Shown: positions 13,174 through 57,048 of the stretch, one piece after another
Layout: the number at the start of each line of letters is the position of its first letter
Numbering within the stretch: position 1 is the stretch's first letter
Assembly (NCBI GenBank): GCA_023248595.1
Contig: JAHFEG010000005.1
Location: 19,134-83,133, forward strand
Length of the DNA stretch: 64,000 bases
Source of the DNA: Myxococcales bacterium
GTDB taxonomy: Bacteria; Myxococcota; UBA727; JABDBI01
Direction of reading: 5' to 3'
Notes under the pieces: generated by a model
Told to the model about the DNA's origin: nothing
Databases searched by the model: none
What the model saw: the letters and a program-made list of their open reading frames with translations, nothing else
Made by a program: the position numbers and the translations under genes

Positions 13174-13230
13174 CATCAAGCCCTCTTTGGATAGTCTAGC
13201 GGCATCAAGTGAAATCAAATGAGGTGCTAG

Positions 13231-14259
13231 GTGGTAAAACGGATTGCAATCAATGGTTTTGGTCGTATTGGCAGAGTGGCCTTTCGAATTATTCATGAGC
13301 GCAATCAAAGAGGCCAAAAAAATATTGTCGTGGGCGCAATTAACGATTTGTCCGATCCCAGCAGCCTTGCTTATTTGCTCAAGTATGATTCTGTCCATGG
13401 TCGCTTTCATGGCGAAGTAGAGTTCGATGGTAAAGTGCTATTGGTTGATGGTCAGCCTATCCATCTAAGCGCTGAACGAGATCCTTCTAAATTACCGTGG
13501 AAAACCACTGATAGCGATATCGTATTAGAATCAACGGGTCATTTTACACGTAAAGACATGGCGGCGAGACATCTACTTGCCGGAGCCCAAAAAGTTTTAA
13601 TTAGTGCGCCAAGTAGCACTGAATCCCCAGCGGATGCCACAATTTGTTACGGTGTGAATCACAAGGTTTATACGCCTAACATGCAAGTGATTTCCACTGC
13701 TTCATGCACCACCAACTGCATCGCACCGATTGCCAAAATATTGCATGAACAATTTGTTATTCAAAAAGCATCAGTCACCACGATTCACAGTTATACGAAC
13801 GATCAACAACTGCTAGATTTGCCCCACTCAGATAAGCGCCGTTCGCGGGCAGCCGCTTTGTCGATGATCCCGACCACGACGGGTGCAGCAAAAGCTGTGG
13901 CTTTGGTTTTGCCGGAACTGGCAGGTAAATTTGACGGCATGGCCGTTCGGGTGCCGACGCCCAATGTGAGCTGTATCGACATGGTGGCGCTGCTTGGTAA
14001 AAACGCGACGGCTGGGGAAATTAATGCTAGGTTTCATGAAGCTTCTAAGGGTGTATTTGCAGGAGTGCTCGGATTTACCGAAGATCCTGTTGTTTCTATC
14101 GATATGAATGGCACCAATGAATCATCTATCGTTGATGCGTCTTGCACCAAAGTATTGGGTGGCGACTTTGTTAAAGTTCTGGCCTGGTATGATAACGAGT
14201 GGGGCTTTGCCAACCGCGCCGTTGATTTGTTAGAAATGATGGCGTTAAGCTGCTCGTAA
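13231..14259 (+). CDS. gap: glyceraldehyde-3-phosphate dehydrogenase
   Basis: INGFGRIGR, active site [19 protein letters not shown] start. Confidence 0.95.
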
Positions 14260-28896: not shown

Positions 28897-29606
28897 TTGC
28901 GTTAACAGGACGGGTTTTAGAAGGCGTTTTTTTACGTCGTTACAAGCGTTTTTTCGCAGATGTGCGCTTGAACGATGGCACGGAAATTGTGGCGCATACG
29001 CCAAATACCGGCAGCATGAAAGGGCTGTGTGACGAAGGGAATTTGTGTTTGGTCACCTATCAGCCTTCACCCACACGAAAACTGCATTATACTTTGCAGG
29101 CCATCAAAGTGAAAAATGCTTGGGTTGGTTGCAACACTAGTTTGCCAAATCCGCTGGTGGCATATGCCATCCAAAATAAACAGATTCCGCAACTATTGGG
29201 CTATCAGAAAATCCGCCGCGAAGTTCCTTATGGGCCAGACAATCGCTCAAGGATTGATTTGCTTTTAACTGACCACGAGGACAATAAGCCTGATGTCTTT
29301 GTGGAAGTGAAGAATGTGACTTTAAAAGAAGGGGATTTGGCGCTTTTTCCCGATGCCGTGACCAGCAGAGGCCAAAAGCATTTGTTTGAATTAATCAATG
29401 AAGTCAAAGCGGGGCATCGTGCGGTCATGAATTTTCTGGTGCAGCGAGAAGATTGCACTGGTTTTTCACCAGCAGAGAAGATTGATCCAGATTATGCCAA
29501 AGCTTTGATTCTCGCACGCGACGCCGGCGTTGAGCTGTTGTGTTTAACGGCTCGGATTGATAAGATGGGTGTCCAAATCGTTGGAGAGTTGCCGATCTAC
29601 CTTTAA
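28893..29606 (+). CDS. sfsA: sugar fermentation stimulation protein SfsA (DNA/RNA nuclease fold)
   Basis: N-terminal RYKRFFADV and FVEVKNVTL motifs. 237 aa. Confidence 0.9.
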   Translation: MIALTGRVLEGVFLRRYKRFFADVRLNDGTEIVAHTPNTGSMKGLCDEGNLCLVTYQPSPTRKLHYTLQAIKVKNAWVGCNTSLPNPLVAYAIQNKQIPQLLGYQKIRREVPYGPDNRSRIDLLLTDHEDNKPDVFVEVKNVTLKEGDLALFPDAVTSRGQKHLFELINEVKAGHRAVMNFLVQREDCTGFSPAEKIDPDYAKALILARDAGVELLCLTARIDKMGVQIVGELPIYL

Positions 29607-29629
29607 GATCAAGACGAGAAAGTCCCAAA

Positions 29630-30562
29630 ATGTATCAAATCACTGAATGCGAAAATACCAAAGCATACCTTGCTATCGAAGGTTTAGAGAATCAACTTTT
29701 GCAAGAATTGCCGAGCGAAAAAGAAATTTTTGGCCGTCTGATTTGGGTGAAAGAAGAACTTAAAAATCCTGTATTTTGGTTTGCTAACCAATGGCAAGAA
29801 AATTACCAAATCGAGTTTGATTCGATTTCTGATTGTGCCAAGGCGCTATCTTCTATTCAAAAAAATTGGTGGCCCTATTTTTCTGCGCATGCCCGTCGAG
29901 GAACTTTGATTCAAGACGCTCTGCCATATATCTCACCCAAACCATTGGTGTTTCCAGGCTCCATGCAAACAACGTACCCACCTCTTGGTTCTTGGACGTT
30001 GCTGGGCCCCAACACAGCTTTGGCGTCGCCAGTTTGTAGTAGTCCGCGGCCCCATGGCGAATGGAATTTTGTGGAAGACCGAGTTGGTCCACCGAGCAGA
30101 GCTTATTTGAAACTGTGGGAAGTTTTCTCGATGCTGCAAATGTGTCCAAAGCCTAAAGAAAAATGTTTGGATCTTGGCGCAAGTCCCGGTGGTTGGACTT
30201 GGGTTTTAACTCAACTGGGTGCGCGCGTGGTTGCGATTGATCGCAGCCCTTTGCGTGAGGACTTGATGACATCGCCACTGGTTCAGTTTCAAAACGGCAA
30301 CGCCTTTAGTGTGAATCTGGAAGATTATCCTGATACTTCTTGGCTCTTTTGTGATGTGATTTGTTACCCCGAAAAACTATATGAATTTTTTATGCAAAAA
30401 GTTTTACCGTCGTCAATTCAAAACGCTGTTTGTACACTGAAGTTTCAAGGCAGCGAGCATTATCCTGTGATTCAAAAATTTGCAGCAATTCCCGGTGGCT
30501 CTCTCATACATCTTACCCACAACAAACATGAACTGACTTTCGTTTTTCGAAGGACGGTATAG
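29630..30562 (+). CDS. rlmM: 23S rRNA 2'-O-ribose methyltransferase RlmM-like
   Basis: SAM motif CLDLGASPGGWTWVL, plus WLFCDVICYPEK and TLKFQG segments as in RlmM. 310 aa. Confidence 0.75.
   Translation: MYQITECENTKAYLAIEGLENQLLQELPSEKEIFGRLIWVKEELKNPVFWFANQWQENYQIEFDSISDCAKALSSIQKNWWPYFSAHARRGTLIQDALPYISPKPLVFPGSMQTTYPPLGSWTLLGPNTALASPVCSSPRPHGEWNFVEDRVGPPSRAYLKLWEVFSMLQMCPKPKEKCLDLGASPGGWTWVLTQLGARVVAIDRSPLREDLMTSPLVQFQNGNAFSVNLEDYPDTSWLFCDVICYPEKLYEFFMQKVLPSSIQNAVCTLKFQGSEHYPVIQKFAAIPGGSLIHLTHNKHELTFVFRRTV
30525..30553 (+). repeat. cassette-boundary direct repeat, copy 1 (inside the rlmM 3' end)
   Basis: AACATGAACTGACTTTCGTTTTTCGAAGG. Confidence 0.9.
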
Positions 30563-30633
30563 GTAGGTTGAAAAACTAGATCAATTGGCTATTGTTTGCT
30601 ATGTTACATTAAATGTATTTAAAGAGTGCTTTT

Positions 30634-32088
30634 ATGAATAAATTAAATTGGTTTTCTTTTGTAGTTGTTTGCCTTTTTTTGTTTCCTGACGCCAAAGCTC
30701 AAGGGGCAGAGAAGTATCTAAAAGCAGCGAATCAAAGCAACGCTCGCGCTCAATTCATCCTCGGGCTTGAATATGACCTCGGCCATGGAGTTGCTCAAGA
30801 TTACAAGAAAGCGATGGAATGGTACCTGAAAGCAGCGAAACAAGGAGACGCGGGTGCTCAAGCCAGCATCGGCGCTCTATACTACCAGGGCCATGGAGTT
30901 GCCCAAGATTATAAAAAAGGTATGGAATGGTACCTGAAAGCAGCGAAACAAGGTCACCCTTTGGCTCAATATGGTCTCGGGTCTGCATACTACGAGGGCT
31001 TAGGAGTTGCTCAAGATTACAAGAAAGCGATGGAATGGTTCCTGAAAGCAGCAAACCAAGGTAATGCTGAGGCTCAATTTATGCTTGGGGATTTGTATGA
31101 AACCGGCAAAGGAGTTCCTCGAGATTACAAGAAAGCGATGGAATGGTACCTGAAAGCAGCGGATCAAGGTTTTCCTGAGGCTCAACGTAACATTGGAAAT
31201 ATGTACAGCGAAGGTTGGGCCGTCCCCAAAGATCCTAAAAAAGCAATTGAATGGTGGAAAAAAGCTGCGGCTCAAGGAGATCTGGCTGCCCAATTGAGGC
31301 TTGGGTTGACATACTTCGAAGGCCGGCTTGTTAGTCAAGATTATAAACAGGCTTTTGAATGGTTCCTGAAAGCAAGCAATCAAGGTAATGCCGAGGCTCA
31401 ACATATGATTGGAGTTCAGTACAATGATGGTTTGGGCGTAATACATGATTATAAAAAAGCCATGGAATGGTATTTGAAAGCAAGCAATCAAGGTAATGCC
31501 GGGGCTCAACATATGATTGGAGTTCTTTATGCTAAAGGTTTGGGCGTCACGCAGGATTTTAAAAAAGCAGCGGAATGGTATCTGAAATCGGCGAAGCAAG
31601 GCAACGATGAGGCTCAATTTAATCTCGGGGCTCTATACGTCATCGGCCAAGGAGTTCCTCAAGATTATAAAAAAGCGGCCGAATGGACCTTGAAAGCAGC
31701 GAATCAAAGCCACGCTCAAGCTCAAAGTAACATGGGATTTCTGTACGGCGGCGGTTTGGGCGTCACGCAGGATGATAAAAAAGGAGCGGAATGGACCTTG
31801 AAAGCAGCGAACCAAGGCGATGCTCAGGCTCAATTTAATATTGGAATTCTATACTACTTAGGCCAAGGAGTTCCTCAAGATTACAAAAAAGCCATGGAAT
31901 GGTACCTGAAAGCAGCGAATCAAGGCCTCGCTCAAGCTGAATACAATCTCGCCATTTTATATTTCGAAGGCTCGGGGGCTGAAAAAGATCTTAAACAAGC
32001 TTTTGTATGGTGCGAAAAGGCGGCAAGGCAAGGTTTCCAGCCTGCTATAGACATGCTCCAAGAATTAAAAAAAATAGAGAACCATTAA
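30634..32088 (+). CDS. secreted Sel1-repeat (SLR/TPR-like) protein, about 12 repeats
   Basis: Signal peptide MNKLNWFSFVVVCLFLFPDAKA. Has a 36-aa periodic G.GV.QDYKKAMEWYLKAA.QG.A.AQ motif. An alternative ATG lies at 30613. Confidence 0.9.
   Translation: MNKLNWFSFVVVCLFLFPDAKAQGAEKYLKAANQSNARAQFILGLEYDLGHGVAQDYKKAMEWYLKAAKQGDAGAQASIGALYYQGHGVAQDYKKGMEWYLKAAKQGHPLAQYGLGSAYYEGLGVAQDYKKAMEWFLKAANQGNAEAQFMLGDLYETGKGVPRDYKKAMEWYLKAADQGFPEAQRNIGNMYSEGWAVPKDPKKAIEWWKKAAAQGDLAAQLRLGLTYFEGRLVSQDYKQAFEWFLKASNQGNAEAQHMIGVQYNDGLGVIHDYKKAMEWYLKASNQGNAGAQHMIGVLYAKGLGVTQDFKKAAEWYLKSAKQGNDEAQFNLGALYVIGQGVPQDYKKAAEWTLKAANQSHAQAQSNMGFLYGGGLGVTQDDKKGAEWTLKAANQGDAQAQFNIGILYYLGQGVPQDYKKAMEWYLKAANQGLAQAEYNLAILYFEGSGAEKDLKQAFVWCEKAARQGFQPAIDMLQELKKIENH
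30700..32040. repeat. 108-bp periodic coding repeats (Sel1 units)
   Basis: For example, GATTA(C/T)AA.AA.G..ATGGAATGGTACCTGAAAGCAGCGAAACAAGG occurs at 30799 and again at 30907. Boundaries are approximate. Confidence 0.75.
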
Positions 32089-32117
32089 AACATGAACTAA
32101 CTTTCGTTTTTCGAAGG
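32089..32117 (+). repeat. cassette-boundary direct repeat, copy 2
   Basis: AACATGAACTAACTTTCGTTTTTCGAAGG matches copy 1 at 28 of 29 positions and starts immediately after the Sel1 stop codon. Confidence 0.9.
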
Positions 32118-32139
32118 GCAGAAATTTTTAAGAGGGCTT

Positions 32140-32853
32140 ATGAAATCAATTAAAATTAGTATGGCTATTTCTGGGATCATTGGTTTAGTCATGCTTCCCA
32201 TTGCTATTTCTTTTTTATACAACACACATTCCTTTTTGAGAGAGGCGGTAAAAACGGAAGGAACAGTAGTGGATTTTATTTCGAGCCCTTCAAGCAGCGG
32301 AGGGTCAGCAACGACCTATGCGCCTGTTGTTCATTTTCAAATACCCGACGGTCGCATAATTGAATTGATATCAGACATATCATCGTACCCTCCCAGCTTC
32401 ACGATGGGAGAAACGGTCGGAGTTTATTATCTTCCTTCTCAGCCAAAGCAAGCCCGCATTGATAGTTTCTTTTCACTATGGGGCGTGGGGGCAAGTATTG
32501 GCGGCATGGGGTTGGTGTTCTGTTTAACCAGCTTTTTTATGTTTCTTATTTCGCGGCTGAACAAACGCAAGGCGGAGTATTTGAAACGCAACGGACAAGC
32601 GGTCCAAGCAACGTATCAGGGTGTGGAAATTAATAGTTCATTTACTGTCAACGGCCGCTCTCCTTACCGTGTTGTGACGCATTGGAAAAATCCTGTCACA
32701 GGTGAGTTGCATATTTTTAAGAGCGAAAACCTCTGGTACAATCCCGCCGATCATTTGAAGGAACATCAATACATCACGGTCTATCTTGAACTCAGCAATC
32801 CAAAAAAATACTGGGTCGATACGAGTGTGCTGCCTAAATTGGCAAATTCTTAA
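32140..32853 (+). CDS. DUF3592-type membrane protein
   Basis: Architecture is TM, beta-rich domain (TEGTVVDF...YAPVVHFQ...GETVGVYY), TM, then a second similar domain. Confidence 0.7.
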   Translation: MKSIKISMAISGIIGLVMLPIAISFLYNTHSFLREAVKTEGTVVDFISSPSSSGGSATTYAPVVHFQIPDGRIIELISDISSYPPSFTMGETVGVYYLPSQPKQARIDSFFSLWGVGASIGGMGLVFCLTSFFMFLISRLNKRKAEYLKRNGQAVQATYQGVEINSSFTVNGRSPYRVVTHWKNPVTGELHIFKSENLWYNPADHLKEHQYITVYLELSNPKKYWVDTSVLPKLANS

Positions 32854-32875
32854 TCGAGAACTTCCCAAATAGAGA

Positions 32876-32905
32876 AACGTCGAGCTTACTTTCGTTTTTC
32901 GATGG
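32876..32905 (+). repeat. cassette-boundary direct repeat, copy 3 (degenerate)
   Basis: AACGTCGAGCTTACTTTCGTTTTTCGATGG. The core ACTTTCGTTTTTCGA is intact at 32888..32902. Confidence 0.75.
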
Positions 32906-32943
32906 ATGCTCTAATTTGCACTGAATGGACAGCTAAAATAAAC

Positions 32944-32971
32944 TTGACAATATCTGCAATTTTGATAATAT
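32944..32971 (+). promoter_or_regulatory. candidate sigma70-type promoter of hipBA
   Basis: TTGACA (32944-49), 16-nt spacer, TAATAT (32966-71). The hipB ATG at 32979 sits about 7 nt after the -10 box, so the transcript may be leaderless. Confidence 0.4.
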
Positions 32972-32978
32972 ATATCTT

Positions 32979-33314
32979 ATGTCAAAAGCGCCTGCTGCTC
33001 TTTCTTCCATGCCACCTGTCGCTTTAGAAGCCCTAAAACGACTAGGTGAAGATCTGGCTATTGCAAGGGTGCGTCGCCGAGAATCACAACGGGTATGGAG
33101 CCAGCGTTTAGGTGTCTCCGTTCCCACACTCATCCGATTAGAACAAGGCGATCCTGGGGTCAGTATGGGTATTTACGCAACCGCTTTGTGGCTCATCAGC
33201 CGCACACCGGCACTTGCACAATTGGCCGACCCTCAACATGACCGCGGAGCCTTAGAACTTGATATCCGAAAAGCCCTTCGACAACACACACGCAGGAAGA
33301 GAAGGCATGACTAA
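32979..33314 (+). CDS. hipB: XRE-family HTH antitoxin (HipB-like)
   Basis: HTH segment SQRVWSQRLGVSVPTLIRLEQGDPGVSMG. Overlaps the downstream hipA start. Confidence 0.8.
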   Translation: MSKAPAALSSMPPVALEALKRLGEDLAIARVRRRESQRVWSQRLGVSVPTLIRLEQGDPGVSMGIYATALWLISRTPALAQLADPQHDRGALELDIRKALRQHTRRKRRHD

Positions 33315-34536
33315 AAATTGTTACCAACCTGTCGACCAGCTGTTTCTCTGGATGCTAACTGAGCCCACAAAGCCCATATTGATTGGCGAGCTCAACATGG
33401 TTCGCCACGTACGCGGTGTCTCGCTACGTTATGAACAGTCATGGAGAGAAAACGGATTTGCTTTAAGTGAAGATTTACCTCTAGAAGGCCAAGACGAATT
33501 TTTTCCAACTGTGCAAGATACAGCCGTGGGAGCTATCGATGACGCAAGACCCGATCGTTGGGGTGAACGCGTGATTAGGCTTATCGATAAACCGCTAAGG
33601 CTGTCCCTGATGGAATACCTATATTTCGCCGGAGATAATCGATTTGGAGCCCTCGGTGTTTCTCTCTCCAGAGATAAATATGAACCTTGCGACAAAAATC
33701 CACTGCCATTTTTAAGCGATATTGAGACAATTGAACAACTGGTTCAAAAAGTGCTGGCCAATGAGCCTATCCCTGAGGAGCAAAAACGACTCATCTCTGC
33801 AGGTGTCAGCATGGGTGGAGTTAAACCTAAAGCGTTGCTTAATATTCAGGGTGAGCCTTGGGTGGTTAAGTTTTCCGATGGTGACCCAATCGATACTCCC
33901 TTAATAGAACATGCTTCCATGACACTCGCTGCTTTGGCAGGCATTCGAGTGGCCGAGACAAAAACGATTCGCATGAACTACGGTCACGCGGTTGCCATCA
34001 AACGCTTTGATCGCATCAAGAACCAGCGTGTACACACTCTTTCCGCTTATGTGGCATTGAAAGCAGCAGCCGAGCCATTTGGCTACCCTGAATTAGCCTT
34101 GCTTTTACGACGACGTGGACCTAGTAAAAACAGTACTAATTTAAAACACATGCACGAACTATTTCGCCGCATGGTATTCAATATTTTGATTGATAATACC
34201 GACGATCATGAAAAAAATCATGCGCTCTTGGTTAATGCAGAACAAGAATATGAATTATCACCTGCTTACGACATACTGCCTTCTGGGCAAGCGTTGGGTT
34301 ACCAACAAATGCGTGTCGGCACAGAACAGGCAGACTCTACAATCACTAATGCTCTATCGCAGTGCGAACTATTTTCCTTAAGTCAAGAAGAGGCCAGAGC
34401 AGAAACTCTTAGAGTCATCAAAGTCATTAATACTTGGAAAGAACACTTTAAAGCCTGTGGCGCTTCCCCCCGTGATATTGAAATGCTCGAAGAACAAATT
34501 GATAGGCCGTTCTTGAAACAACAAAGACAAACATGA
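33307..34536 (+). CDS. hipA: HipA-family serine/threonine kinase toxin
   Basis: DDARPDRWG and NILIDNTDDHEKNHALL motifs. ATG at 33307 overlaps the hipB stop by 8 nt. Confidence 0.85.
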   Translation: MTKNCYQPVDQLFLWMLTEPTKPILIGELNMVRHVRGVSLRYEQSWRENGFALSEDLPLEGQDEFFPTVQDTAVGAIDDARPDRWGERVIRLIDKPLRLSLMEYLYFAGDNRFGALGVSLSRDKYEPCDKNPLPFLSDIETIEQLVQKVLANEPIPEEQKRLISAGVSMGGVKPKALLNIQGEPWVVKFSDGDPIDTPLIEHASMTLAALAGIRVAETKTIRMNYGHAVAIKRFDRIKNQRVHTLSAYVALKAAAEPFGYPELALLLRRRGPSKNSTNLKHMHELFRRMVFNILIDNTDDHEKNHALLVNAEQEYELSPAYDILPSGQALGYQQMRVGTEQADSTITNALSQCELFSLSQEEARAETLRVIKVINTWKEHFKACGASPRDIEMLEEQIDRPFLKQQRQT

Positions 34537-34558
34537 GCTAACTTTCGTTTTTCGAAAA
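34530..34558 (+). repeat. cassette-boundary direct repeat, copy 4
   Basis: AACATGAGCTAACTTTCGTTTTTCGAAAA. It contains the hipA stop codon (34534-36). Confidence 0.9.
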
Positions 34559-34561
34559 AGC

Positions 34562-35095
34562 TTATCTTGTTAGCTCTTCCCAATTTTGCTTTGCAATTTT
34601 AGCTGCATCGCCCTGTAAGATAGGTGCTGTAAAAATTCCGCCTATTAAAGGAGCGCTATCTTCAAATTCGATTCTTCCCTTTACAATGTAGTTATCGTAT
34701 TCAAAATTCTTAAGAGAAGCCACCTTGCTTAATTTGTCAACGTTGACACCTTCCGATTGTGTCCGCACCCAGAAATTAATAATATTTCCTTTATTATCAA
34801 AAGTCATAAATAAGCTATCATGTTTTTTAAAGGCATCTATAATTTTATCTTTTTGCATGATATTGAAATCATTTAAGTCGCGTCCCGGATCAATGCTGAT
34901 CCAGGTCATCATGACATGGATTAATCTTAAATCCGCACCGCTTTCGTCTTTTTTGTCTTCAATGTATGAAAAGATTGTCCCATCTGGGTTAAATGAGAAA
35001 TTTTTTAGATTGCTTTCGAACTGTACGCTGCCAAATTGGCAAGATGAGCCAAGTGTGGTCAAGAAAAAAAGAACGGCGACAAGTTTTTTCAGCAT
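34562..35095 (-). CDS. hypothetical lipoprotein
   Basis: Signal/lipobox MLKKLVAVLFFLTTLGSSC. I recognise no domain. Confidence 0.6.
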   Translation of the reverse strand: MLKKLVAVLFFLTTLGSSCQFGSVQFESNLKNFSFNPDGTIFSYIEDKKDESGADLRLIHVMMTWISIDPGRDLNDFNIMQKDKIIDAFKKHDSLFMTFDNKGNIINFWVRTQSEGVNVDKLSKVASLKNFEYDNYIVKGRIEFEDSAPLIGGIFTAPILQGDAAKIAKQNWEELTR

Positions 35096-37322: not shown

Positions 37323-37970
37323 ATGGCTGGCGATGAGCAAACTGAGCCCGGCATGGTGGCTTGTGAAGAAGTAAGCGTTCTCGCCACCGAAGTCGTCATG
37401 CCCCCGGAGTTGTTATGCCAGCCCAGGCACGAAAAAGACAAAAACCCCAAACTGAAAATAGGAATGGCCGTCATGATCATGATGGGTATTGGTGTATGGT
37501 CATGGATTTTAACAAAAAATCACAAAGGGGCACCGCTTAGCTCTAGAGAAGTTCAAGTGCAAATTGCTGGCCAAACATTAATGGATAGCACGCCGGTTCT
37601 ATTGCCCATGAAAATGATTCAAGAAAAGGTAGTTTTTCATGTCGATATTAATCAAAGACTACGCGAAACGCTTCGCTATATGAATTTAGGAAGGCAGGCA
37701 TTAAAAGAACGATACATGGCAAAAGCCATCGAAAATTTCGTACGGGCAAAGCAAATTTTAAATGGTCTTCCATACACGAAAGCAAATTTTTTGCACAGTG
37801 AACTTAATGCGTTGCATGCCAATGCTCTTTACTGGCAGGGATTTTTAGCTTTGCAAAAAGAGAATCAGTGTCAGGCTAAAGCCTACTTCGTCGGGGCGCA
37901 AGTCATGGCGCCTCACGATCGAAAAATTCAGGATCGCCTCAAGGAAATTTCACCGTCATTAAGATGTTAA
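37323..37970 (+). CDS. hypothetical single-pass membrane protein with a TPR-like C-terminus
   Basis: TM segment IGMAVMIMMGIGVWSWIL. The start is uncertain: the ORF opens at 37185, overlapping rnr. Confidence 0.5.
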   Translation: MAGDEQTEPGMVACEEVSVLATEVVMPPELLCQPRHEKDKNPKLKIGMAVMIMMGIGVWSWILTKNHKGAPLSSREVQVQIAGQTLMDSTPVLLPMKMIQEKVVFHVDINQRLRETLRYMNLGRQALKERYMAKAIENFVRAKQILNGLPYTKANFLHSELNALHANALYWQGFLALQKENQCQAKAYFVGAQVMAPHDRKIQDRLKEISPSLRC

Positions 37971-38015
37971 AAATTGATAAAACCGTTCGGCTTTTCCATT
38001 AGATGCAAAAAATTG
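37963..38015. repeat. 53-bp perfect direct repeat, left copy (duplicate of the CYTH gene 3' end)
   Basis: GATGTTAAAAATTGATAAAACCGTTCGGCTTTTCCATTAGATGCAAAAAATTG is identical to 39515..39567. Confidence 0.92.
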
Positions 38016-38377
38016 AGATAGTGCCTATGTTTTTTTTAATGCTTTGGTTTGGAGCTTGCCCAACAACGAGCTCAGTAAAAATTTTACCCGTAACCGAATG
38101 AGCCTCCCAGGTATTTAAAGGTGAGCCGGCGGAAATTCTTCCGATTGCAAAAATGGAAGGTTTGTTGGTGCTATAGACAGTCGGACCAAACCCAACCATG
38201 ACAAATGAAACAATACGCAGAGAACTTACCCAGAAAGCCTTAATCGTCAGTGCTATATCAACCAAGAGACAGTGTTAGCAAACCACCGCATTGTTTTTAA
38301 GTGTTGCATTTCGAAGTTGACTTGGCCATATTATTCCGAGTAGAAGTGTTTTATTAAAATTACACAAGGAGTATCAG

Positions 38378-38917
38378 ATGAAAACAAATACCACGTTGTT
38401 TGTTTTTTTAATGAGTTTAAGTATGTCCTTTAGTAATAATGTAGCTGCAACTATAACCGGAACCTATAGGTATGAACATAGTAGCTTGTCTGGTGGCTGC
38501 AACGCTGGCGCTAAGGAGCAGTTATTAAAAACTGCCCAGCAAGAAGCTATAAGGACATGTCAAGGCCACCATGGTACGGTTACAAATATTGGTTCTATGT
38601 ATAAAGAAGGCGGTGCCGTAAATGCGAAAACTTGCATTATCTTTGGTATATATGATTGTTCCACCAACAATAAACCAAAAAGCTGGTATGGGTGTAGTAA
38701 CTGCAAAACCAACACAGATAGAGAATCAGAATTAAACAATAAAACTGGTGGATTTAGTAGAAGCGTTCCTGCGTTACCAGAAAATGCTGCATGGAATGAT
38801 TTATGCACTGCTATGGGAAAGAAATGCATAACAGTTATTGATTGGAAAGGAACTACACAAGGTTGTGAAAGTTGGGCGTTGGATGGTAGCCGTGCTGTAT
38901 TATGCGAAGATCTATAA
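38378..38917 (+). CDS. secreted cysteine-rich protein
   Basis: AAGGAG Shine-Dalgarno sequence, signal peptide MKTNTTLFVFLMSLSMSFSNNVAA, and 11 Cys in the mature part. I recognise no family. Confidence 0.7.
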   Translation: MKTNTTLFVFLMSLSMSFSNNVAATITGTYRYEHSSLSGGCNAGAKEQLLKTAQQEAIRTCQGHHGTVTNIGSMYKEGGAVNAKTCIIFGIYDCSTNNKPKSWYGCSNCKTNTDRESELNNKTGGFSRSVPALPENAAWNDLCTAMGKKCITVIDWKGTTQGCESWALDGSRAVLCEDL

Positions 38918-38967
38918 TCAACTTTTTTCAGTAAAGTTAAGGATTAAATTTATATGACGAATAAAAA

Positions 38968-38998
38968 GACCAACATTTTGTTGGCCTTTTTTTTAATG
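38968..38998 (+). terminator. possible Rho-independent terminator
   Basis: GACCAAC-ATTTT-GTTGGCC stem-loop followed by T8. Confidence 0.45.
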
Positions 38999-39019
38999 CC
39001 GTAAAAATGTAGGCAGCTT

Positions 39020-39124
39020 TCAGCGTCGTCCTTTTTTACCTCGTGGGTCATCCACGACCTCAAGCGGCAATTCTTTGAGACGCTTGTGCAAAACGCCATA
39101 AGCCGGTCTGTTATTTCCAGTCAT
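39020..39124 (-). pseudogene. possible N-terminal remnant of an ISAs1/IS4-like (DDE_Tnp_1-associated) transposase
   Basis: The 34-codon ORF MTGNNRPAYGVLHKRLKELPLEVVDDPRGKKGRR* recalls the ..DPR..GKRH.L motif. The reading continues as KLPTFL after the stop. Recognised from memory only. Confidence 0.3.
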
Positions 39125-39507
39125 TCATTTTTTCTTCCTTAAATCACTTGTAAATTCGACGACCAGAAAGCATTATAACCCTGGCCTTATTACGCTTTTA
39201 GTCACAACTGCGGGGGCTGCTAATGAACTGAACGAACCAGGAAAAGATATTTTCTTCTGCACAAAGGATTTAGAGTCTTTTCAATCGAGTCCCGCCTCTG
39301 TGACAGGTGGTAACAACGATAACCCTGGCACTGAGGATAGCATGCAGGTCCACTTCCCTCTGAACAATGATAAGCATAATGCTTTCAATCTTAGACATTG
39401 CTTTGTTGCTTTCGCAATGGTTGAGAAAATAGAGGGCTCTCTCGGCTGTTAGCAAGCGTTCTTGCCCCTAAAGTCGTCATGCCTGCGCTGGCATGACAAC
39501 AGAAAAT

Positions 39508-40218
39508 CTAAACCGATGTTAAAAATTGATAAAACCGTTCGGCTTTTCCATTAGATGCAAAAAATTGCGCATTGGCTTTTTGAAAAAGTTCGAGCAAAAA
39601 ATGTTCAGCATTTTGGTAGTGAAGGGACGTCGGGATTTCTAGTTCAACTTCATAGTGAATGATTTCTGATTTAAATGTTGTCTCATCCATTTCCAGTAAA
39701 AATTCATTTTGGGCAATTGCGACGGGAATGCAAGTGCGCTGATTGGTGAATGAACCAATCATTTGCAAAGGTTTGTTTGAGCTCAGAATACTAATCTGTT
39801 TACAGAGAAATTCTCGCGTTCTTATTTTTTTGGAATCATTGGCTGCTGACTGAGCAAGCAAGTAATCGAGTGGCGAGCACTTTTGTTCAAGCAATTGTCT
39901 GGCAATCGTTTCAGGAATGTCGTCTTCGTATTCTAACTTGATTGACATGCTTTTTTGATTTTTTGCTGCTTTGGGATCATTTCCTTTGATGCATAAAATA
40001 AAGCGATCGTTTTCATAGCGCAAACGTATCGCTAAAGAATTTGCTCTTAAAATGAGATCTGAGGTGTCAAAAAAATAATTATTTTGCTTAAGTAATAGAA
40101 AATCTTTGGCTTGGCTTATGCTCATTGCAGTTTCTTTCACGCGCTGAAATGTGTTTGCGTCATGGAAGCGGTATTTCAGTTCGATTTCTTGATGAAGTTC
40201 TTGATGCAAATGGGGCAT
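39508..40218 (-). CDS. CYTH domain protein (CyaB/thiamine triphosphatase-like)
   Basis: N-terminal EIELKYRF (ExExK) signature. 236 aa. Confidence 0.75.
   Translation of the reverse strand: MPHLHQELHQEIELKYRFHDANTFQRVKETAMSISQAKDFLLLKQNNYFFDTSDLILRANSLAIRLRYENDRFILCIKGNDPKAAKNQKSMSIKLEYEDDIPETIARQLLEQKCSPLDYLLAQSAANDSKKIRTREFLCKQISILSSNKPLQMIGSFTNQRTCIPVAIAQNEFLLEMDETTFKSEIIHYEVELEIPTSLHYQNAEHFLLELFQKANAQFFASNGKAERFYQFLTSV
39515..39567. repeat. 53-bp perfect direct repeat, right copy (inside the CYTH gene 3' end)
   Basis: Identical to 37963..38015. It encodes ..QFFASNGKAERFYQFLTS. Confidence 0.92.
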
Positions 40219-40325: not shown

Positions 40326-41711
40326 ATGGGTTTTCGCATCGAAACCGATAGCATGGGAGAAGTCAAAGTTTTAGCCAAAGCATATTGGGGGGCGCAAACC
40401 CAGCGCAGTTTACAGAACTTTAAAATTGGTCAGGAACATTTTTCTCTCGATTTTATCCATGCCTATGCTTTGGTGAAACAAGCAGCTGCCCAAGTAAATG
40501 CAGATCTAGGGGAGCTAGATGCCAAAGTCGCTGCCTGGATTAAACAGGCAGCTCAGGAAATAATTGATGGTCGTCACGACGATCAGTTCCCCTTGGTGAT
40601 TTGGCAAACTGGTTCTGGCACGCAGACCAATATGAACCTAAACGAAGTGATTGCCAATCGCGCTATTGAAATAGCGGGTGGCAAGATTGGGAGTAAAAAA
40701 CCAGTTCATCCCAATGACCATGTCAACAAAAGCCAAAGCACAAACGATACTTTTCCCACTGCGATGCATGTCGCTGCTGTTCTTTCTATTCATCAAAAAT
40801 TATTGCCGGCGATCGATCAGTTAATCAAAACATTTGATGAGAAAGCCAAGACGTTTCATCATGTGGTTAAAATGGGACGAACGCATTTGCAAGATGCCAC
40901 GCCGATTACTCTAGGCCAAGAAATTGGTGCTTGGTCTGCCCAATTGCGCGACGCCAAAGAGGCGATTGAAGCTGTGGGTCCTAAGATATGCGAATTGGCG
41001 GCGGGTGGAACAGCCGTGGGGACAGGATTAAATGCGCATCCTGAATATGCAGTTAAAATTGCAAAGCATCTTGCCAGACTAACTGGTTATAGTTTTACTT
41101 CTGCAAAAAATAAATTTGCGGCGCTCGCCTCACACGATGCCTTAGTATCGTTGTCGGGTGCTTTAAGTGTATTGGCTTGTGCACTGATGAAAATTGCTAA
41201 CGACGTGCGCTGGCTGGCCAGTGGTCCTAGAGGTGGCCTTGGTGAATTGATGATTGCAGAAAACGAACCAGGTTCTTCGATTATGCCAGGCAAAGTAAAT
41301 CCGACGCAATCTGAAGCAGCAACAATGGTTTGTTGCCAAGTAATAGGCAATCATACGACGGTCATGATGGCGGGTAGCCAGGGTAATTTTCAATTAAATG
41401 TTTACAAGCCTGTGATTATTTATAACGTGTTGCAGTCAATTCGAATTTTAGCCGACGTGCTGGTGAGCTTTGATGAACATTGTGCACGTTCGATTGAGCC
41501 TAACTTGAATCGATTAAAAGAATTGAAGGACAAGTCGCTCATGCTCGTGACAGCGTTGGCACCTTATATTGGTTACGATCAAGCAGCCCATGCTGCCAAA
41601 AAAGCCCATCAAGAAAACAGCACACTGAAAGAGGCAGTTTTATCGATGGGTCTCATGACTTCTGAAGAATTTGATGAGCGAGTTAAACCAGAAAGCATGG
41701 TTGGTAATTAG
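40326..41711 (+). CDS. fumC: class II fumarate hydratase
   Basis: [11 protein letters not shown] signature, plus [11 protein letters not shown] and HLQDATP motifs. Confidence 0.96.
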
Positions 41712-41775
41712 GATGCTTTCAGGTTTTGGTTAAGAAACTTTTCCTGCTTAAAGCACGAGAGAGTTTGTGAAAATT

Positions 41776-42045
41776 TCAGTCTTTGTGCAGCGGGCAGATA
41801 GTTGTTTGAGCACAACCCGTCGTACCAGTTAATATGTATGGCGAACGATGCTTGCATTCCGCTGACAATGAAGGGGTTGGGTTATAACATTCCTGTGTAA
41901 CCTTATTCTCATCAATGTAGTAGCAGCACGCTGGATGCTCATTCGGATTCGTTGTCTTCTCATCACTCAGTTGGTTTTCTCCATTTGGTGAGCAAGCGCC
42001 TACAACCATCATGAGTAGCGATAACGCTAATATTTTTTTAATCAT
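41776..42045 (-). CDS. small cysteine-rich lipoprotein (paralog A)
   Basis: MIKKILALSLLMMVVGAC lipobox and 7 Cys. Paralog of 42191..42445. Confidence 0.7.
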   Translation of the reverse strand: MIKKILALSLLMMVVGACSPNGENQLSDEKTTNPNEHPACCYYIDENKVTQECYNPTPSLSAECKHRSPYILTGTTGCAQTTICPLHKD

Positions 42046-42190
42046 TGCTTTTACCTCTGACTGGGTTTTATGTCTTTTAGTTTAACACAGAGCCAGTAGG
42101 CGGCGCAAGCATGTGTCGGTTTTAGTGTACGACTTTAGGGTAAGGTCTGGAATCATATAAGAAAATTAATAAAAAAATATATGGTTTCTC

Positions 42191-42445
42191 TTAAGATTTG
42201 AGGGAACCCTGCGGGGGTTTACAAAGGCCTATATTACTTTTAGGACAGGGTGTCTCTGTCCAACTAACATTACTGTCGTTGTAAAACTCGCATTTGTGAC
42301 GCGAAAAAATAGTTTTACTGCAAAACTGGTTTGCATTTTGACAGCACTTTGAGTGTAGTTCTGTCGCAAAACTGTTCTCATCGTTTTGTGAACATGCACC
42401 TAGAACTGTCATGAGTAGCGATAATGTTAATATTTTTTTAATCAT
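42191..42445 (-). CDS. small cysteine-rich lipoprotein (paralog B)
   Basis: MIKKILTLSLLMTVLGAC lipobox and 7 Cys. Confidence 0.7.
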   Translation of the reverse strand: MIKKILTLSLLMTVLGACSQNDENSFATELHSKCCQNANQFCSKTIFSRHKCEFYNDSNVSWTETPCPKSNIGLCKPPQGSLKS

Positions 42446-42574
42446 TATTTCTACCTTTTACTGGGTTTTACATCTTTAGTTTAACAAAGATCCAGAAGTT
42501 GGTGCAAGCATGAGCCAGTTTTAATTTTGATGATTTAAGAGATTTTTGAATTCTGACGCCGATACTCTAATTGC

Positions 42575-43987: not shown

Positions 43988-44386
43988 GTGAAATTCAATT
44001 TATGGTTTTTTCTCGCTGGAATTTTTGGTCTGAGCGCATTGATTTTTGATGCTTTTGGATCCCATGCCTTATCAAGTTGGCTGGCTTTATCGCCCGAAGA
44101 TATGAGTCTTGTCAAACAATCTTGGCAAACCGCAACCAAGTACCAATTGGTGCATGCTTTGTTGCTTGTGTTCTTTGCTGGTATGACTTTTGAAAAAAAA
44201 CAGTGGAACCTTACCTGGGGAAAAATCTTCATCGTGCTGGGTGTGATTTTATTTTGCGGTGGGATTTATGTGAAAATATTAACAGGCATGACTTGCTTTG
44301 GACAAATTGCTCCCTATGGAGGCGGTTGTTTGATGCTGGCCTGGGTCTGCTTAATTGTGACAGCGTTTCGAACTGGTAACCGGTAA
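43988..44386 (+). CDS. DUF423 family membrane protein
   Basis: Four TM segments and a FGSHAL motif. GTG start. Confidence 0.75.
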   Translation: MKFNLWFFLAGIFGLSALIFDAFGSHALSSWLALSPEDMSLVKQSWQTATKYQLVHALLLVFFAGMTFEKKQWNLTWGKIFIVLGVILFCGGIYVKILTGMTCFGQIAPYGGGCLMLAWVCLIVTAFRTGNR

Positions 44387-51923: not shown

Positions 51924-52066
51924 GGGCGTACTTTAAGCAATAACTTATTTTCTGCAAGGGATGAAGGAACGTTACTGGAGCGACTTCGGTCACTTTTTTC
52001 TTTAAAGCTGAAACATTGCGCCCATCTATTTTGTTACATTTCTGTAGTCATAAATGGAGTTATTTT

Positions 52067-52663
52067 ATGTTTCGAAAAAGAAAAAATAGAGTTGTCAATT
52101 TATGTTTCTGGCTAGTTTTATTTATTTCAAATGCGAGTTCAGCTCAATATTTTGGTAACAATGCTTTTCAGGTCCCCTTCGTTGGTTGGATGGGGTTTGA
52201 TACCACTGCGGGTGGGCTTGTTGATCCTGCGCTCAACCAACCATGGCAGTCTACCGATCAGGTACAGCTGGGCTTTGGTTACATGCGAACTCTTATGAGT
52301 GGGTATCGTTTATGGTATACGGTGCAAACTGGATTAGGGTTTGGTTACACTAAAAACTACGAGCAAGCAGCTCATCAAATTGTAATTGGTATCAATGTCG
52401 CTTCCGGTTTACGGTATAATTTTTTAGAAAAACGCCATCGGCCTTTTATTGCTGCTCAAGGTGAATATTTGCATTTTTTTAATCTGGATGCTGGTACTGG
52501 CCGTGCCTTTTGGATCGGAATATTGTTTGGACCAGGATACGAATGGATTTTTGGTAACAATATGGGTATTCAATTGGAAACCGGAGCGCACGCGCTCTTT
52601 GATCTTCTAAATCCGGTTCGATACACCTGGGCGTCTCGGTTGTCGTATACACTTTATTTTTAA
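52067..52663 (+). CDS. small outer-membrane beta-barrel protein (putative)
   Basis: Signal peptide, alternating Gly/aromatic beta-strand pattern, and C-terminal ...SYTLYF. Confidence 0.55.
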   Translation: MFRKRKNRVVNLCFWLVLFISNASSAQYFGNNAFQVPFVGWMGFDTTAGGLVDPALNQPWQSTDQVQLGFGYMRTLMSGYRLWYTVQTGLGFGYTKNYEQAAHQIVIGINVASGLRYNFLEKRHRPFIAAQGEYLHFFNLDAGTGRAFWIGILFGPGYEWIFGNNMGIQLETGAHALFDLLNPVRYTWASRLSYTLYF

Positions 52664-52683
52664 GCTGCCTTAAACAAATATAA

Positions 52684-52884
52684 CTATCCTTTGATGTGTA
52701 ATTGTTTTTTCTGAGCCAATGCTAGACCCTTGGCTAGATTATTGCCGACGATAACCTCCTTGTTTTTTTTAGATTGAGATTGACACACTTGAGGAGAGCA
52801 CAAATGTTTCACAATATAAGCAACTGCAATTGCTAAAAGAACAAAGGTCAGTGTTGAATCTATCAATGTTGCCCATGTGCTCAT
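52684..52884 (-). CDS. possible FeoB-associated Cys-rich small membrane protein
   Basis: 66 aa starting 2 nt after the feoB stop. One TM segment (LTFVLLAIAVAYIV) is followed by CSPQVC. Confidence 0.4.
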   Translation of the reverse strand: MSTWATLIDSTLTFVLLAIAVAYIVKHLCSPQVCQSQSKKNKEVIVGNNLAKGLALAQKKQLHIKG

Positions 52885-52885
52885 T

Positions 52886-54835
52886 TTAAAATCCCAATGC
52901 GGATCCTGCCTGGAACAAAGCAAAAGAACATAGCCAAGCAAGAACAGTCATGTAACTAAATTGGAAGGCAGGCCACCGCCAGCTTTTGGTCTCTTTTTTG
53001 GTGGCTGCCAGCGTGCTCATGCATTGCATGGCTAAAGAATAGAAAATCATTAACGATAAAGCAACCAGGGGGGTGTAAACAGGCTTGCCCGTTTGTGGAT
53101 TGATATCGTTTTGGATTGCTTCTTTAAGGGTCATTTTTGTTTCGTCTTGGCTGTGTCCAAGTCCATACATGACTCCCAGGGTAGAAACGAAAACTTCTCG
53201 AGCGGCAAAACTAGATAAAATGCCAACGCTAATCTTCCAATCAAAACCCAGTGGTGCCACTACAGGTTCGATTAGCTGACCCAATTGACCGGCATAGCTG
53301 TTCTTGATCTGGGCTTGAATTTCGCTTTGATTTTTTGTCGTTTGTTGGGTTTCATTTCTTGGAAAAGTGAAAAGGCCCCATAAAATAATTGTCATTGCCA
53401 AAATAACCGTTCCGGCTTCACGCAAAAAAAGCCAGATGCGGGTCCAGATGTTTTGCGCAAGAGATGACCAGCGTGGCATTCGATAAGGCGGAAGTTCTAA
53501 AATCAACGAAGGAGTTGGTCCTTTTAAGACAAATCTTTTAAGGAGAGCTGCTACGCCAAATGCAGCGATGATACCAATTCCATACATGGAGAGCATGACC
53601 AATGCGCCTATTTCGATAAAACCCCAAAGAGGCGGAGCGGAAGCAAAAACAGCTGCAATTAAAAGTCCATAGATCGGCAATCGTGCTGAACAGGACATCA
53701 ATGGTGTCACCAAGATGGTGACGAAACGATCTTTTTTAGATTCAATGACGCGGGTTGCCATAATCGCGGGAACAGCACAGGCAAAACCAGATAGCAATGG
53801 TACAAATGCGCGACCAGATAAACCGACTTTCGACATAAACCTATCGAGCAAAAAAGTTGCTCGTGCCAAATAACCAGAATCTTCTAGCACTCCAATAAAT
53901 AAAAATAAAATGGCGATAAGAGGTATGAAAACAATGACGCTGCCAACACCAGAAATAATACCGTCTGTAATCAAAGAACCGATCAGGGAATCATCAGGAA
54001 AAAAAGACCGTACAATATTCGAAAAATAGGAAATGCCATTTTCGATGCCATTCATAAATGGCGTTGCCCCCAAAAATAAGGACTCGAACATCACAGCAAA
54101 AACCAAGATAAGAAAAATCGGTCCCCAAAATAGGTGTAGCAAAATATCATCAGCGCAAAAACGCTTCTTTTTAGGCGTTTTAATAGTATTTTTAAGAACA
54201 CCTTGCAACCAAACTTCAATTTGTTGATATCGCTTGGTGATATCGGTAGCGCTGGGTTTGTGAAGTGTTTGGCTGTGTGTAGATCTTGAGGGCTCGACTT
54301 GCGCTGTTTGTAGTTTGACCCATTGATCGATTTCGACAAGCAAGGCGTCGATACCAACTCCTGTTACTGACGACAAAGAGACAACGGGTACCGATAGCCT
54401 TTGCGATAAAAGCAAAGTTTTAATTTCAATACCTTGCCTCTGGACTTCATCCATCATTGTTAAAGCGAGAAGCAGTGGCTTTTTTAAATCCAACAATTGC
54501 GAAACTAAATATAAGTTACGCTTCAGTTGTGTTGCATCAACAACGGCAACAATTAGATCGCTTATTGATGATGGCCCAAGTTGCCCCAAAACACCTTTAA
54601 CTGTGACTGTTTCGTCTTCAGAGCGTGAATAGAGGCTATAAGTCCCTGGCAAATCAACAACGCAAACCTGATTTTTCGAAGGTAAATTTAAATTTCCTTC
54701 ACGCAAGTCCACAGTAATACCAGGGTAATTGGCAACATGTGCTTTCAGGCCCGTTAGGCGATTGAACAGCATTGTTTTACCGGCATTGGGATTGCCGACT
54801 AACAACACGCGAGGCTTGATTTTAAAAGTATCCAT
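52886..54835 (-). CDS. feoB: ferrous iron transporter FeoB
   Basis: N-terminal G domain LVGNPNAGKTMLFN and DLPGTYSL, followed by a polytopic membrane domain. Confidence 0.95.
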   Translation of the reverse strand: MDTFKIKPRVLLVGNPNAGKTMLFNRLTGLKAHVANYPGITVDLREGNLNLPSKNQVCVVDLPGTYSLYSRSEDETVTVKGVLGQLGPSSISDLIVAVVDATQLKRNLYLVSQLLDLKKPLLLALTMMDEVQRQGIEIKTLLLSQRLSVPVVSLSSVTGVGIDALLVEIDQWVKLQTAQVEPSRSTHSQTLHKPSATDITKRYQQIEVWLQGVLKNTIKTPKKKRFCADDILLHLFWGPIFLILVFAVMFESLFLGATPFMNGIENGISYFSNIVRSFFPDDSLIGSLITDGIISGVGSVIVFIPLIAILFLFIGVLEDSGYLARATFLLDRFMSKVGLSGRAFVPLLSGFACAVPAIMATRVIESKKDRFVTILVTPLMSCSARLPIYGLLIAAVFASAPPLWGFIEIGALVMLSMYGIGIIAAFGVAALLKRFVLKGPTPSLILELPPYRMPRWSSLAQNIWTRIWLFLREAGTVILAMTIILWGLFTFPRNETQQTTKNQSEIQAQIKNSYAGQLGQLIEPVVAPLGFDWKISVGILSSFAAREVFVSTLGVMYGLGHSQDETKMTLKEAIQNDINPQTGKPVYTPLVALSLMIFYSLAMQCMSTLAATKKETKSWRWPAFQFSYMTVLAWLCSFALFQAGSALGF

Positions 54836-54843
54836 TGGGGAGC

Positions 54844-55101: not shown

Positions 55102-55106
55102 TTTGG

Positions 55107-55127
55107 TTTTGATACTCATTATCAAAA
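55107..55127. promoter_or_regulatory. perfect 8-5-8 palindrome at the feoA 5' end, Fur-box-like
   Basis: TTTTGATA-CTCAT-TATCAAAA. The minus strand reads TTGATAATGAGTATCAA, resembling GATAATGATAATCATTATC. Confidence 0.35.
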
Positions 55128-56282: not shown

Positions 56283-56290
56283 GAGAAGAG

Positions 56291-57037: not shown

Positions 57038-57048
57038 GGAGTGATTTT

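Follow-up and report, generated by a model that had tools for sequence, protein, structure and literature searches.

The stretch of DNA considered here, referred to as the window, comprises 64,000 bp of the Myxococcales bacterium assembly GCA_023248595.1 (contig JAHFEG010000005.1, positions 19,134 to 83,133, forward strand). It harbors a gene for an RlmM-like rRNA methyltransferase, termed rlmM in the following for brevity, whose last codons recur three times further downstream, and the resulting four repeat copies bound three consecutive cassettes with a gene for a secreted Sel1-repeat protein, a gene for a DUF3592 membrane protein, and a hipBA operon, respectively. This array is an insertion for which a related lineage displays the empty site; its breakpoint recurs, its repeats share a conserved core, and no recombinase is encoded nearby. 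The remaining open reading frames (ORFs) of the window revealed housekeeping functions, e.g., gyrA, gap-pgk-tpi, bamA/tamB, clpXP, mnmEG, and feoB, plus ankyrin and Sel1 proteins.

Repeat copies and cassettes downstream of the RlmM-like gene

A repeat search resulted in a family of four 30-nt copies (Table 1), which revealed identities to copy 1 of 100, 97, 77, and 87% for copies 1, 2, 3, and 4, respectively, and follow each other at spacings of 1564, 788, and 1653 nt. Scanning the 64-kb window for the 15-mer ACTTTCGTTTTTCGA led to exact matches at 30536, 32100, 32888, and 34541, four of four on the plus strand, and to no further match at up to two mismatches. Among dinucleotide-preserving shuffles, 0 of 100 reached four matches to this 15-mer (mean 0.32). 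A preliminary description of this DNA, made from the sequence alone, had listed the same four copies with coordinates right to within 1 nt, and had considered that the motif might be a common dispersed element of the repetitive extragenic palindromic type; since no further copy exists in the 64 kb at this stringency, the motif is not dispersed. Translated in the frame of rlmM, copies 1, 2, and 4 read KHELTFVFR and copy 3 reads NVELTFVFR, and based on this in-frame peptide, copies 2–4 are copies of rlmM coding sequence. The 15-nt core is free of mismatches, and all 12 differences of copies 2–4 from copy 1 concern the 15 positions that flank it (P of about 8e-5, as the product of hypergeometric probabilities). 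The left boundary is identical in all copies (AAAC...), and conservation among them is confined to about 30–37 nt with none outside, which argues for a short, 'simple' site without arm sequences.

Folding of single-stranded DNA on both strands revealed no significant hairpin at copies 1–3 (z of -0.08 to +1.18), in agreement with the lack of attC-like hairpins reported before. At copy 4, which marks the ancestral junction, the DNA fold reached z = -2.9, and an 8-bp inverted repeat surrounds the core (GAGCTAAC..GTTAGCTC, window 34536-34572); the contig with the empty site (L126) harbors a matching one at 1015-1058 (GAGCTGAC..GTCAGCTC), which resembles a compensatory change. A conserved hairpin at the ancestral site was rejected, as the minimum-free-energy folds of L126 and the window differ and the RNA z-scores are weak, and the inverted repeat could be a bidirectional terminator or due to chance. 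Fold and counterpart would suit a motif that is no recombination scar at all, but a functional terminator, regulatory, or RNA element selected downstream of each gene. We regard this as barely conceivable: the motif is verbatim in-frame rlmM coding sequence, copies 1–3 do not fold, RNA folds are neither significant nor conserved, no Rfam family and no terminator-like site was found at the repeat copies, and the motif is absent from the loci of hipBA homologs.

The target gene itself encodes an FtsJ-family, RlmM-like methyltransferase, while the name rlmM proper, given in the preliminary description, is not supported by its score, since the NCBIfam RlmM equivalog model was matched with 73 bits, below the cut-off of 176, and only with the catalytic C-terminal half of the model. 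The protein belongs to a large family of more than 6000 homologs with an invariant C-terminus NKHE.T (N298, K299, H300, E301, and T303), which is annotated in JGI as 23S rRNA C2498 2'-O-methyltransferase. Its best named RlmM matches were Bdellovibrionota/Oligoflexales metagenome-assembled genomes with an identity of only about 50%, so that the lineage is Bdellovibrionota/Oligoflexia-like by these matches and poorly sampled. After the insertion the target gene was restored, with NKHELTFVFR kept in the window. The tail beyond FVFR is different in every lineage (RTV*, RMAVIL..., RAVHS..., and RAI*), and the last codons of the window gene (RTV*) come from the first cassette. Since only this unconserved tail is altered, the insertion point is neutral for the enzyme and thus represents a 'safe harbour'.

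Pfam confirmed the cargo as named before, i.e., 12 Sel1 repeats in cassette 1, DUF3592 in cassette 2, and HTH_31 (HipB) and HipA_C in cassette 3. All three cassettes are co-oriented, 0.76–1.6 kb in size, and harbor one gene or operon each. They are also gene-tight, with 0–22 nt from a gene to the next copy and 22–80 nt from a copy to the next gene; the stop codon of the Sel1 gene (32086-32088) is directly adjacent to copy 2, and the TGA of hipA falls inside copy 4, both as seen earlier. An ORF and Pfam scan detected no integrase fragments, pseudogenes, or other debris within or between the cassettes. Gene-tight units with a common left boundary suggest that they were built around one site and are not three randomly eroded islands. 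The Sel1 gene (30701-32080) consists of about 12 copies of a 108-nt unit, 62–72% identical at the DNA level, and several metagenome assemblies of the window's strain break within it. For DUF3592, only 22 nt separate copy 2 from the start codon and no convincing promoter of its own was found; its best non-self homologs were only 48–49% identical, and no close homolog was detected.

Cassette 3 displays the features of a predicted type II toxin-antitoxin (TA) system hipBA, namely a helix-turn-helix antitoxin, a HipA-family kinase, and its own promoter. The latter is strong (TTGACA-16-TAATAT, score 10/12, extended -10) and conserved in the homologous contigs L215 and L216, and hipB and hipA overlap by 8 nt. 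From promoter to stop, this module is 78–86% identical at the nucleotide level in three unrelated contexts (L215 2797-4390, L216 775-2369, and L217 7-1463), where homology to the window spans from 32930/32936 to 34524/34529 and ends exactly at the start of copy 4. Judged by these contexts, the hipBA module is independently mobile. None of the three loci revealed an rlmM-like motif or boundary repeats of its own. In L215 and L216, hipBA adjoins other TA genes (Phd/PIN and Phd, respectively), and in the window the last 3–5 codons of hipA are replaced by the repeat.

The GC contrast pointed out before holds for hipB with 52.7%; its GC content at third codon positions (GC3) is normal (0.41), the GC3 values of the cassettes are host-like, and the whole insert revealed 44.6% GC versus 42.7 ± 2.9% for 1-kb windows, so that its foreignness is marginal and a compositional signal was discarded as not significant.

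Table 1. Features of the repeat-bounded array and of the second repeat-bracketed insertion; positions refer to the window.
Feature	Position	Strand	Remarks
RlmM-like FtsJ-family rRNA methyltransferase gene (310 aa), target	29630..30562	+	Pfam FtsJ; NCBIfam RlmM 73 bits
Repeat copy 1, attL-like	30524..30553	+	within functional rlmM 3' end; core 30536-30550
Cassette 1: promoter-like site 30568-30595 and secreted 12-Sel1-repeat protein 30613/30634-32088	30554..32087	+	
Repeat copy 2	32088..32117	+	29/30 identical to copy 1
Cassette 2: DUF3592 membrane protein gene 32140-32853	32118..32875	+	Pfam
Repeat copy 3	32876..32905	+	23/30 identical to copy 1; core intact, flanks degenerate; reads NVELTFVFRWML*
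Cassette 3: hipBA; promoter 32944-32971, hipB 32979-33314, hipA 33307-34536	32906..34528	+	HTH_31, HipA_C
Repeat copy 4, attR-like	34529..34558	+	26/30 identical to copy 1; hipA stop codon inside; right flank is ancestral chromosome
Convergent 177-aa gene, putative secreted protein or lipoprotein	34562..35095	-	right-hand neighbor at the empty site; L126 region 177/192 aa
53-nt repeat, left copy	37963..38015	+	last 8 nt of 261-aa gene and displaced CYTH 3' end
1.5-kb insert: 179-aa Cys-rich secreted ORF 38378-38917 and about 1 kb of non-coding DNA	38016..39514	+	
53-nt repeat, right copy	39515..39567	+	functional 3' end of CYTH gene (39508-40218, minus strand)

Empty and occupied sites in related lineages

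Relatives were identified by a protein search for the closest RlmM proteins, followed by comparison of their contigs. In L126 (GCA_038920345.1), whose rlmM is 83% identical at the nucleotide level, the gene runs straight into a convergent homolog of the gene at 34562-35095, for which no Pfam or NCBIfam family was found; beyond it, L126 continues with RNase R, the CYTH gene, and fumarase in the same order as the window. Exactly this arrangement had been predicted as the empty site. In the BLAST comparison, L126 1-1041 corresponded to window 29517-30557 and L126 1008-1117 to window 34529-34634, and the overlap of these two homology blocks (34 nt) is the duplicated segment. Thus, the segment of about 4 kb was inserted at the rlmM 3' end, and L126 represents the empty site.

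Two other lineages differ from both states. Contig L218 of the third lineage (P0361; contigs L218-L227), 86.5% identical, follows the window and L126 collinearly as far as window 30552, and past this right edge of the core it continues with unrelated DNA for at least 3.9 kb. This region of L218 holds a C-terminal fragment of an IS256/Mutator transposase (13201-13485). The two other long contigs of this lineage, L219 and L220, end 17–300 nt past rlmM, which is suggestive of local strain heterogeneity. As further observations on this lineage, an indel of about 33 nt was observed in L226 roughly 100 nt beyond the core, L218 1-14826 (ERZ27280196 k141_2678990) displays a large rearrangement, in which the DNA upstream of sfsA matches window 52066-61007 in inverted order, and L218 harbors an additional gene for a 390-aa DnaJ-domain protein between sfsA and rlmM. 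In the fourth lineage (P0363), contig L228 with an identity of 92.7%, the core is mutated to ACTTTTATTTTTAGA and 6 of the 30 positions of copy 1 have changed, and past the core the contig continues with sequence homologous to the start of the Sel1 cassette, so that the 5' junction of cassette 1 is common to the window and L228. Altogether, these differences between L126, L218, and L228 mean that close relatives display the site in three states or more, and an identical arrangement in all relatives, which the preliminary description had named as the opposite expectation, is not what was found. Based on the contigs L218 and L228, the same breakpoint was used in other lineages as well.

The orthologous copies also bear on the conservation of the core. 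Since the rlmM core carries three changes in L228 and one in L126, coding constraint alone does not freeze it. Copies 1, 2, and 4 of the window share the codon CAT at a position where L126, L218, and L228 all carry CAC, and such a lineage-specific substitution points to circulation of the cassettes within the lineage or to homogenization of the copies by gene conversion.

Origin of the array and a second insertion at the CYTH gene

We favor, with a probability of roughly 55%, tandem site-specific accretion of minimal att-flanked cassettes, whose recombinase is unlinked or lost. Circular units would insert into the last codons of rlmM, presumably by conservative site-specific recombination at a site of about 30 bp with the invariant 15-bp core, and each incoming circle would bring its own copy of the site, mimicking rlmM codons K299-R307. 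Each integration would restore a functional 3' end of rlmM on the left side and shift the previous copy to the right, and this process, repeated three times, would lead to the three-cassette tandem array. The enzyme may be encoded elsewhere in the genome and act in trans, may have come with a transient helper element, or may have been lost; the units would then behave as cis-mobilizable or pseudo-staphylococcal cassette chromosome (SCC) elements. A circle of one gene plus one site fits the features better than three eroded islands. Of the serial site-specific insertion proposed earlier, the insertion at the rlmM 3' end is borne out, and a serial order of events within the window's lineage is what we infer.

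A scan of ORF 3' ends for downstream duplicates revealed a second locus of this kind, 3.4 kb from the array and absent from the preliminary description, where the two copies of a perfect 53-nt direct repeat (37963-38015 and 39515-39567) flank the 1.5-kb insert listed in Table 1. L126 harbors a single copy of the 53-mer, lacks the insert, and has the flanking genes directly convergent. The 53-mer shows several differences from L126, yet its two copies in the window are identical, and like at rlmM, the insertion replaced no more than the last one or two codons of its target. Within the 1.5-kb insert, no recombinase and no recognizable remnant was found (short ORFs in its non-coding part gave no Pfam match), and an ISAs1-type fragment, suspected at first, was discarded. 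No motif shared by the 30-nt and the 53-nt repeats was found. Thus, either two site-specific systems left integrase-less cargo at rlmM and CYTH, or a sequence-independent process contributes, e.g., Campbell-type crossover on short homology between cells of one lineage.

The repeats might also stem from target-site duplication in break repair or replication template switching, in which staggered nicks or a fork jump would have duplicated 30–53 nt of host DNA around captured foreign DNA. Repeats that are host-derived, variable in length (30 and 53 nt), and present at two sites would suit it, as would the perfect 53-nt pair and the lack of mobile-element genes. We nevertheless judge it very unlikely, because the array would demand three successive events on an identical stretch of 30 nt with unchanged boundaries, because the flanks of copies 2–4 differ from the host and the core does not, and because homology in L218, a third lineage, ends at this position as well.

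In total, 16 kb of synteny with L126 contain four indels, two of which are repeat-bracketed (rlmM and CYTH) and two of which are not. The latter comprise a DUF423 membrane-protein gene between rsgA and clpX (43988-44386), which is absent from L126, has no flanking repeat, and represents simple gain or loss, and a replacement region (41710-42574 versus L126 6727-8020). Here, the window harbors two tandem paralogous genes for small secreted Cys-rich proteins on the minus strand, whose signal-peptide and upstream segments are near-identical (about 41990-42090 and 42400-42490), and L126 carries a gene for an AAA_14/DUF4143 ATPase instead, a paralog of which is located at window 9067-10215.

Several findings weigh against site-specific accretion. 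The window encodes no integrase, serine recombinase, or transposase according to Pfam scans of about 55 ORFs, as had been stated from the sequence alone. The dyad of the core, for which the geometry of a recombinase core site had been claimed, does exist (CTTTCG-TTTTT-CGAAGG); it is weak, with only 5 of 6 pairs and, as described above, no significant fold at copies 1–3. Viral contigs, phages, and plasmids revealed no copy of the motif, and searches of JGI metagenomes resulted only in chance matches. Among 84 more distant loci of the RlmM family with an NKHELT C-terminus, none carried a duplicated 3' end within 10 kb, a survey of flanks up to that length which larger islands escape. Excision or integration within populations was not seen, since variability was found only between lineages, at the level of contigs. 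Contigs of the same strain from four samples, retrieved by exact-protein look-ups of RlmM, DUF3592, HipA, and the 177-aa neighbor and surveyed as assembled contigs, not reads, all showed the identical three-cassette order, with no variant array, circle, or empty site; there is therefore no evidence for present-day mobility, and any present activity would have to be presumed. The source contig measures about 99.7 kb, and bins of this genome derive from ERZ27296333, ERZ27280176, ERZ27297344, and SRR14366772. The CAT shared by copies 1, 2, and 4 requires circulation within the lineage or gene conversion. Finally, a nearby insertion with an unrelated 53-nt repeat needs a second recombinase or a sequence-independent mechanism and thus complicates an explanation by a single recombinase.

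Further searches gave no hint at the origin of the units. No window ORF of at least 110 aa matched a Phage_integrase family. Comparison of the inserts with phages resulted in no match, comparison with plasmids only in generic Sel1 repeats, and among the papers searched, none linked rlmM as an integration site with an integrase. A scan of genome contigs for the 15-mer was dismissed, as this pattern is too short and led to chance matches across phyla, and two JGI metagenome matches to a longer degenerate pattern, located in a desaturase ORF and a high-GC rplU region, were put down to chance as well.

Chromosomal integrons likewise harbor compact single-gene units of common orientation as well as TA cassettes with promoters of their own, and Sel1 and TA genes have been linked to pdif modules, so that a known cassette system served by the host might be considered, either an integron (IntI/attC) or an integrative mobile element exploiting Xer (IMEX/pdif) on a dif-like site. 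Small modules on Acinetobacter and Psychrobacter plasmids would match the Sel1 and TA cargo in kind, where only weak Sel1 matches were found. We hold this to be extremely unlikely. There is no attC-like hairpin at copies 1–3 and no IntI in the window, the site is only 30 nt long and derived from coding sequence, and its copies are all direct, whereas pdif modules alternate in orientation. Scored against dif and pdif consensus sequences, the best match per copy had 13–17 mismatches of 28, the same as random 60-mers (mean 15), and the GC skew is uniformly positive in the window without a terminus signature.

In another explanation, no dedicated recombinase is involved and the cassettes cycle by homology, i.e., they loop out by RecA-type recombination between short direct repeats and, upon transfer to another cell of the same lineage, re-enter by a single Campbell-type crossover on 30–53 nt of homology, by which the flanking duplication is re-created; arrays would grow by unequal exchange between strains with different inserts. 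Two nearby insertions with unrelated repeats, one of 30 nt and one of perfect 53 nt, both consisting of host 3'-end sequence and both without a recombinase, are in line with this, as are the substitutions of the host lineage in the copies (CAT, and a 53-mer pair identical to each other yet unlike L126) and the absence of a recombinase from the 64 kb. What it leaves unexplained is how the same site with the same left boundary came to lie on three cargos. Moreover, a 15-nt perfect core with diverged flanks is below the minimal processing segment of RecA, which is usually about 25 nt, a core far better conserved than its flanks is unexpected for a process blind to sequence, and the homology of L218 ends at the identical nucleotide, followed by unrelated DNA. 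Since three cargos sharing one site with a protected core are hard to obtain by Campbell-type crossover, we consider such cycling unlikely and keep it as the main rival to site-specific accretion.

The uniformity of the same-strain contigs could also mean that the array is a fossil, whose cassettes were assembled elsewhere or long ago by integrase elements since deleted, leaving the copies as dead att scars. Consistent with this, the Sel1 junction is already present in the sister lineage L228 at 92.7% identity, copy 3 is degenerate (23/30), the GC and GC3 of the cassettes are host-like, and decay into elements that keep only their att sites is the standard model for such remnants (PMC5704250). 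However, random deletion would hardly leave just one gene or operon in each of the three units, with tight boundaries and no pseudogene debris. The core is perfect in four of four copies and copy 2 is preserved at 29/30, while copy 1 of L228 has changed at 6 of its 30 positions, which argues for continuing exchange or constraint. Altogether, a mere fossil appears rather improbable to us, and the same degree of doubt applies to a platform that resembles integrons and is unrelated to them, be it one of single-gene cassettes that end in a simple site of about 30 bp mimicking the last ten codons of a housekeeping gene and are inserted, and possibly shuffled, by an unlinked recombinase, or, in view of the second insertion at CYTH, a recombinase-free process that targets and duplicates the 3' ends of convergent genes.

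If the cassettes are mobilized in trans, they would form a cassette system other than integrons that is very small and simple, consisting of one gene and a 30-bp site placed in the dispensable tail of an rRNA-methyltransferase gene, and would extend the safe-harbour logic of SCC and rlmH to a different gene and phylum. They would also offer a tractable case for the formation of minimal cassettes and the spread of integrase-less cargo in bacteria that are uncultured and probably associated with hosts. Were the array just a fossil, it would represent an ordinary genomic islet with unusually clean scars. Regarding the host, the window harbors three genes for ankyrin-repeat proteins (1945-2436, 4296-6515, and 7642-8736) in an otherwise housekeeping stretch; such a set, together with the Sel1 protein (30634-32088), is typically seen in bacteria interacting with eukaryotic hosts.

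Comparison with known systems

The array displays what characterizes accretion arrays, namely 3'-end repeats in the same orientation at every boundary, an unoccupied attB in L126, and a restored target, and the analogy to tandem islands drawn in the preliminary description was apt. In Dehalococcoides, ssrA is followed by tandem islands, each flanked by a 20-bp direct repeat that derives from the 3' end of this gene; 15 of them have no integration module, and mobilization in cis was proposed for these (PMC3146451). As in the window, multiple tandem units are located downstream of one gene and bounded by its 3'-end repeat. Unlike in the window, the target is the tmRNA gene, the islands measure about 10 kb or more, and many carry the CcrB-like serine recombinase DsiB next to attL, a module not seen in the window.

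Cis-mobilizable elements (CIMEs) have lost their integration genes, kept attL and attR, and become stacked by accretion, a process exemplified by ICESt1/3 at the fda 3' end (PMC5704250). The cassettes share with them flanks of att type and the lack of integration or transfer genes. CIMEs are decayed integrative and conjugative elements (ICEs) or integrative and mobilizable elements (IMEs), usually several kb in size and with gene remnants, whereas the window units are intact and have no ICE or IME partner. The absence of integrase fragments and debris from the cassettes is compatible with complete decay of the CIME type and is not evidence for decay.

Another close parallel is provided by psiSCC elements and the arginine catabolic mobile element (ACME) of SCC composite islands, which use 18-bp repeats in the last codons of rlmH/orfX, encode no recombinase of their own, and depend on Ccr from another element (PMC7029136). 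In both cases the last codons of an rRNA methyltransferase gene are targeted, a short direct repeat accompanies each element, and the elements are stacked in tandem. In contrast, the window array uses an RlmM-like target and not rlmH, and a 30-nt repeat with a 15-nt core versus 18 nt; its units have 0.76–1.6 kb versus several to tens of kb, and the host belongs to a Gram-negative uncultured lineage. An assignment to SCC was dropped, given that the target is not rlmH and that no ccr, resolvase, or serine-recombinase domain was found in the window.

Tycheposons likewise occur in tandem, separated by partial tRNAs, where successive integrations push older elements outward and degraded remnants occur (10.1101/2020.12.28.424599). 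Units split by partial copies of the target gene are common to both. Tycheposons are defined by integrase and replication modules and reach several kb to more than 10 kb, whereas the target in the window is protein-coding and the array contains no hallmark genes.

With integron cassettes, the units share the combination of an ORF and a site, their compactness and common orientation, the apparently promoterless DUF3592 gene, and the TA genes with their own promoter. Clusters of attC sites may also lack an adjacent integrase (CALINs), and no integrase adjoins the window array either. Unlike in integrons, the first site lies inside a gene and not at an attI by intI, and the site copies a housekeeping coding end. 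The attC sites considered for membership are imperfect palindromes of 57–141 nt that form single-strand hairpins. With its unstructured unit of 30 nt, no hairpin at copies 1–3, and no IntI, the array was not assigned to integrons or CALINs, so that the integron analogy drawn initially does not hold structurally and captures the layout of the array, not its nature. Xer-dependent IMEX/pdif elements were set aside as well, as no dif-like 28-nt site (XerC/XerD arms with a 6-nt spacer) was found. Altogether, the array is unlike all these precedents in its RlmM-like target, in that every unit is integrase-less, in its tiny, gene-tight, and debris-free units, and in its short and simple site.

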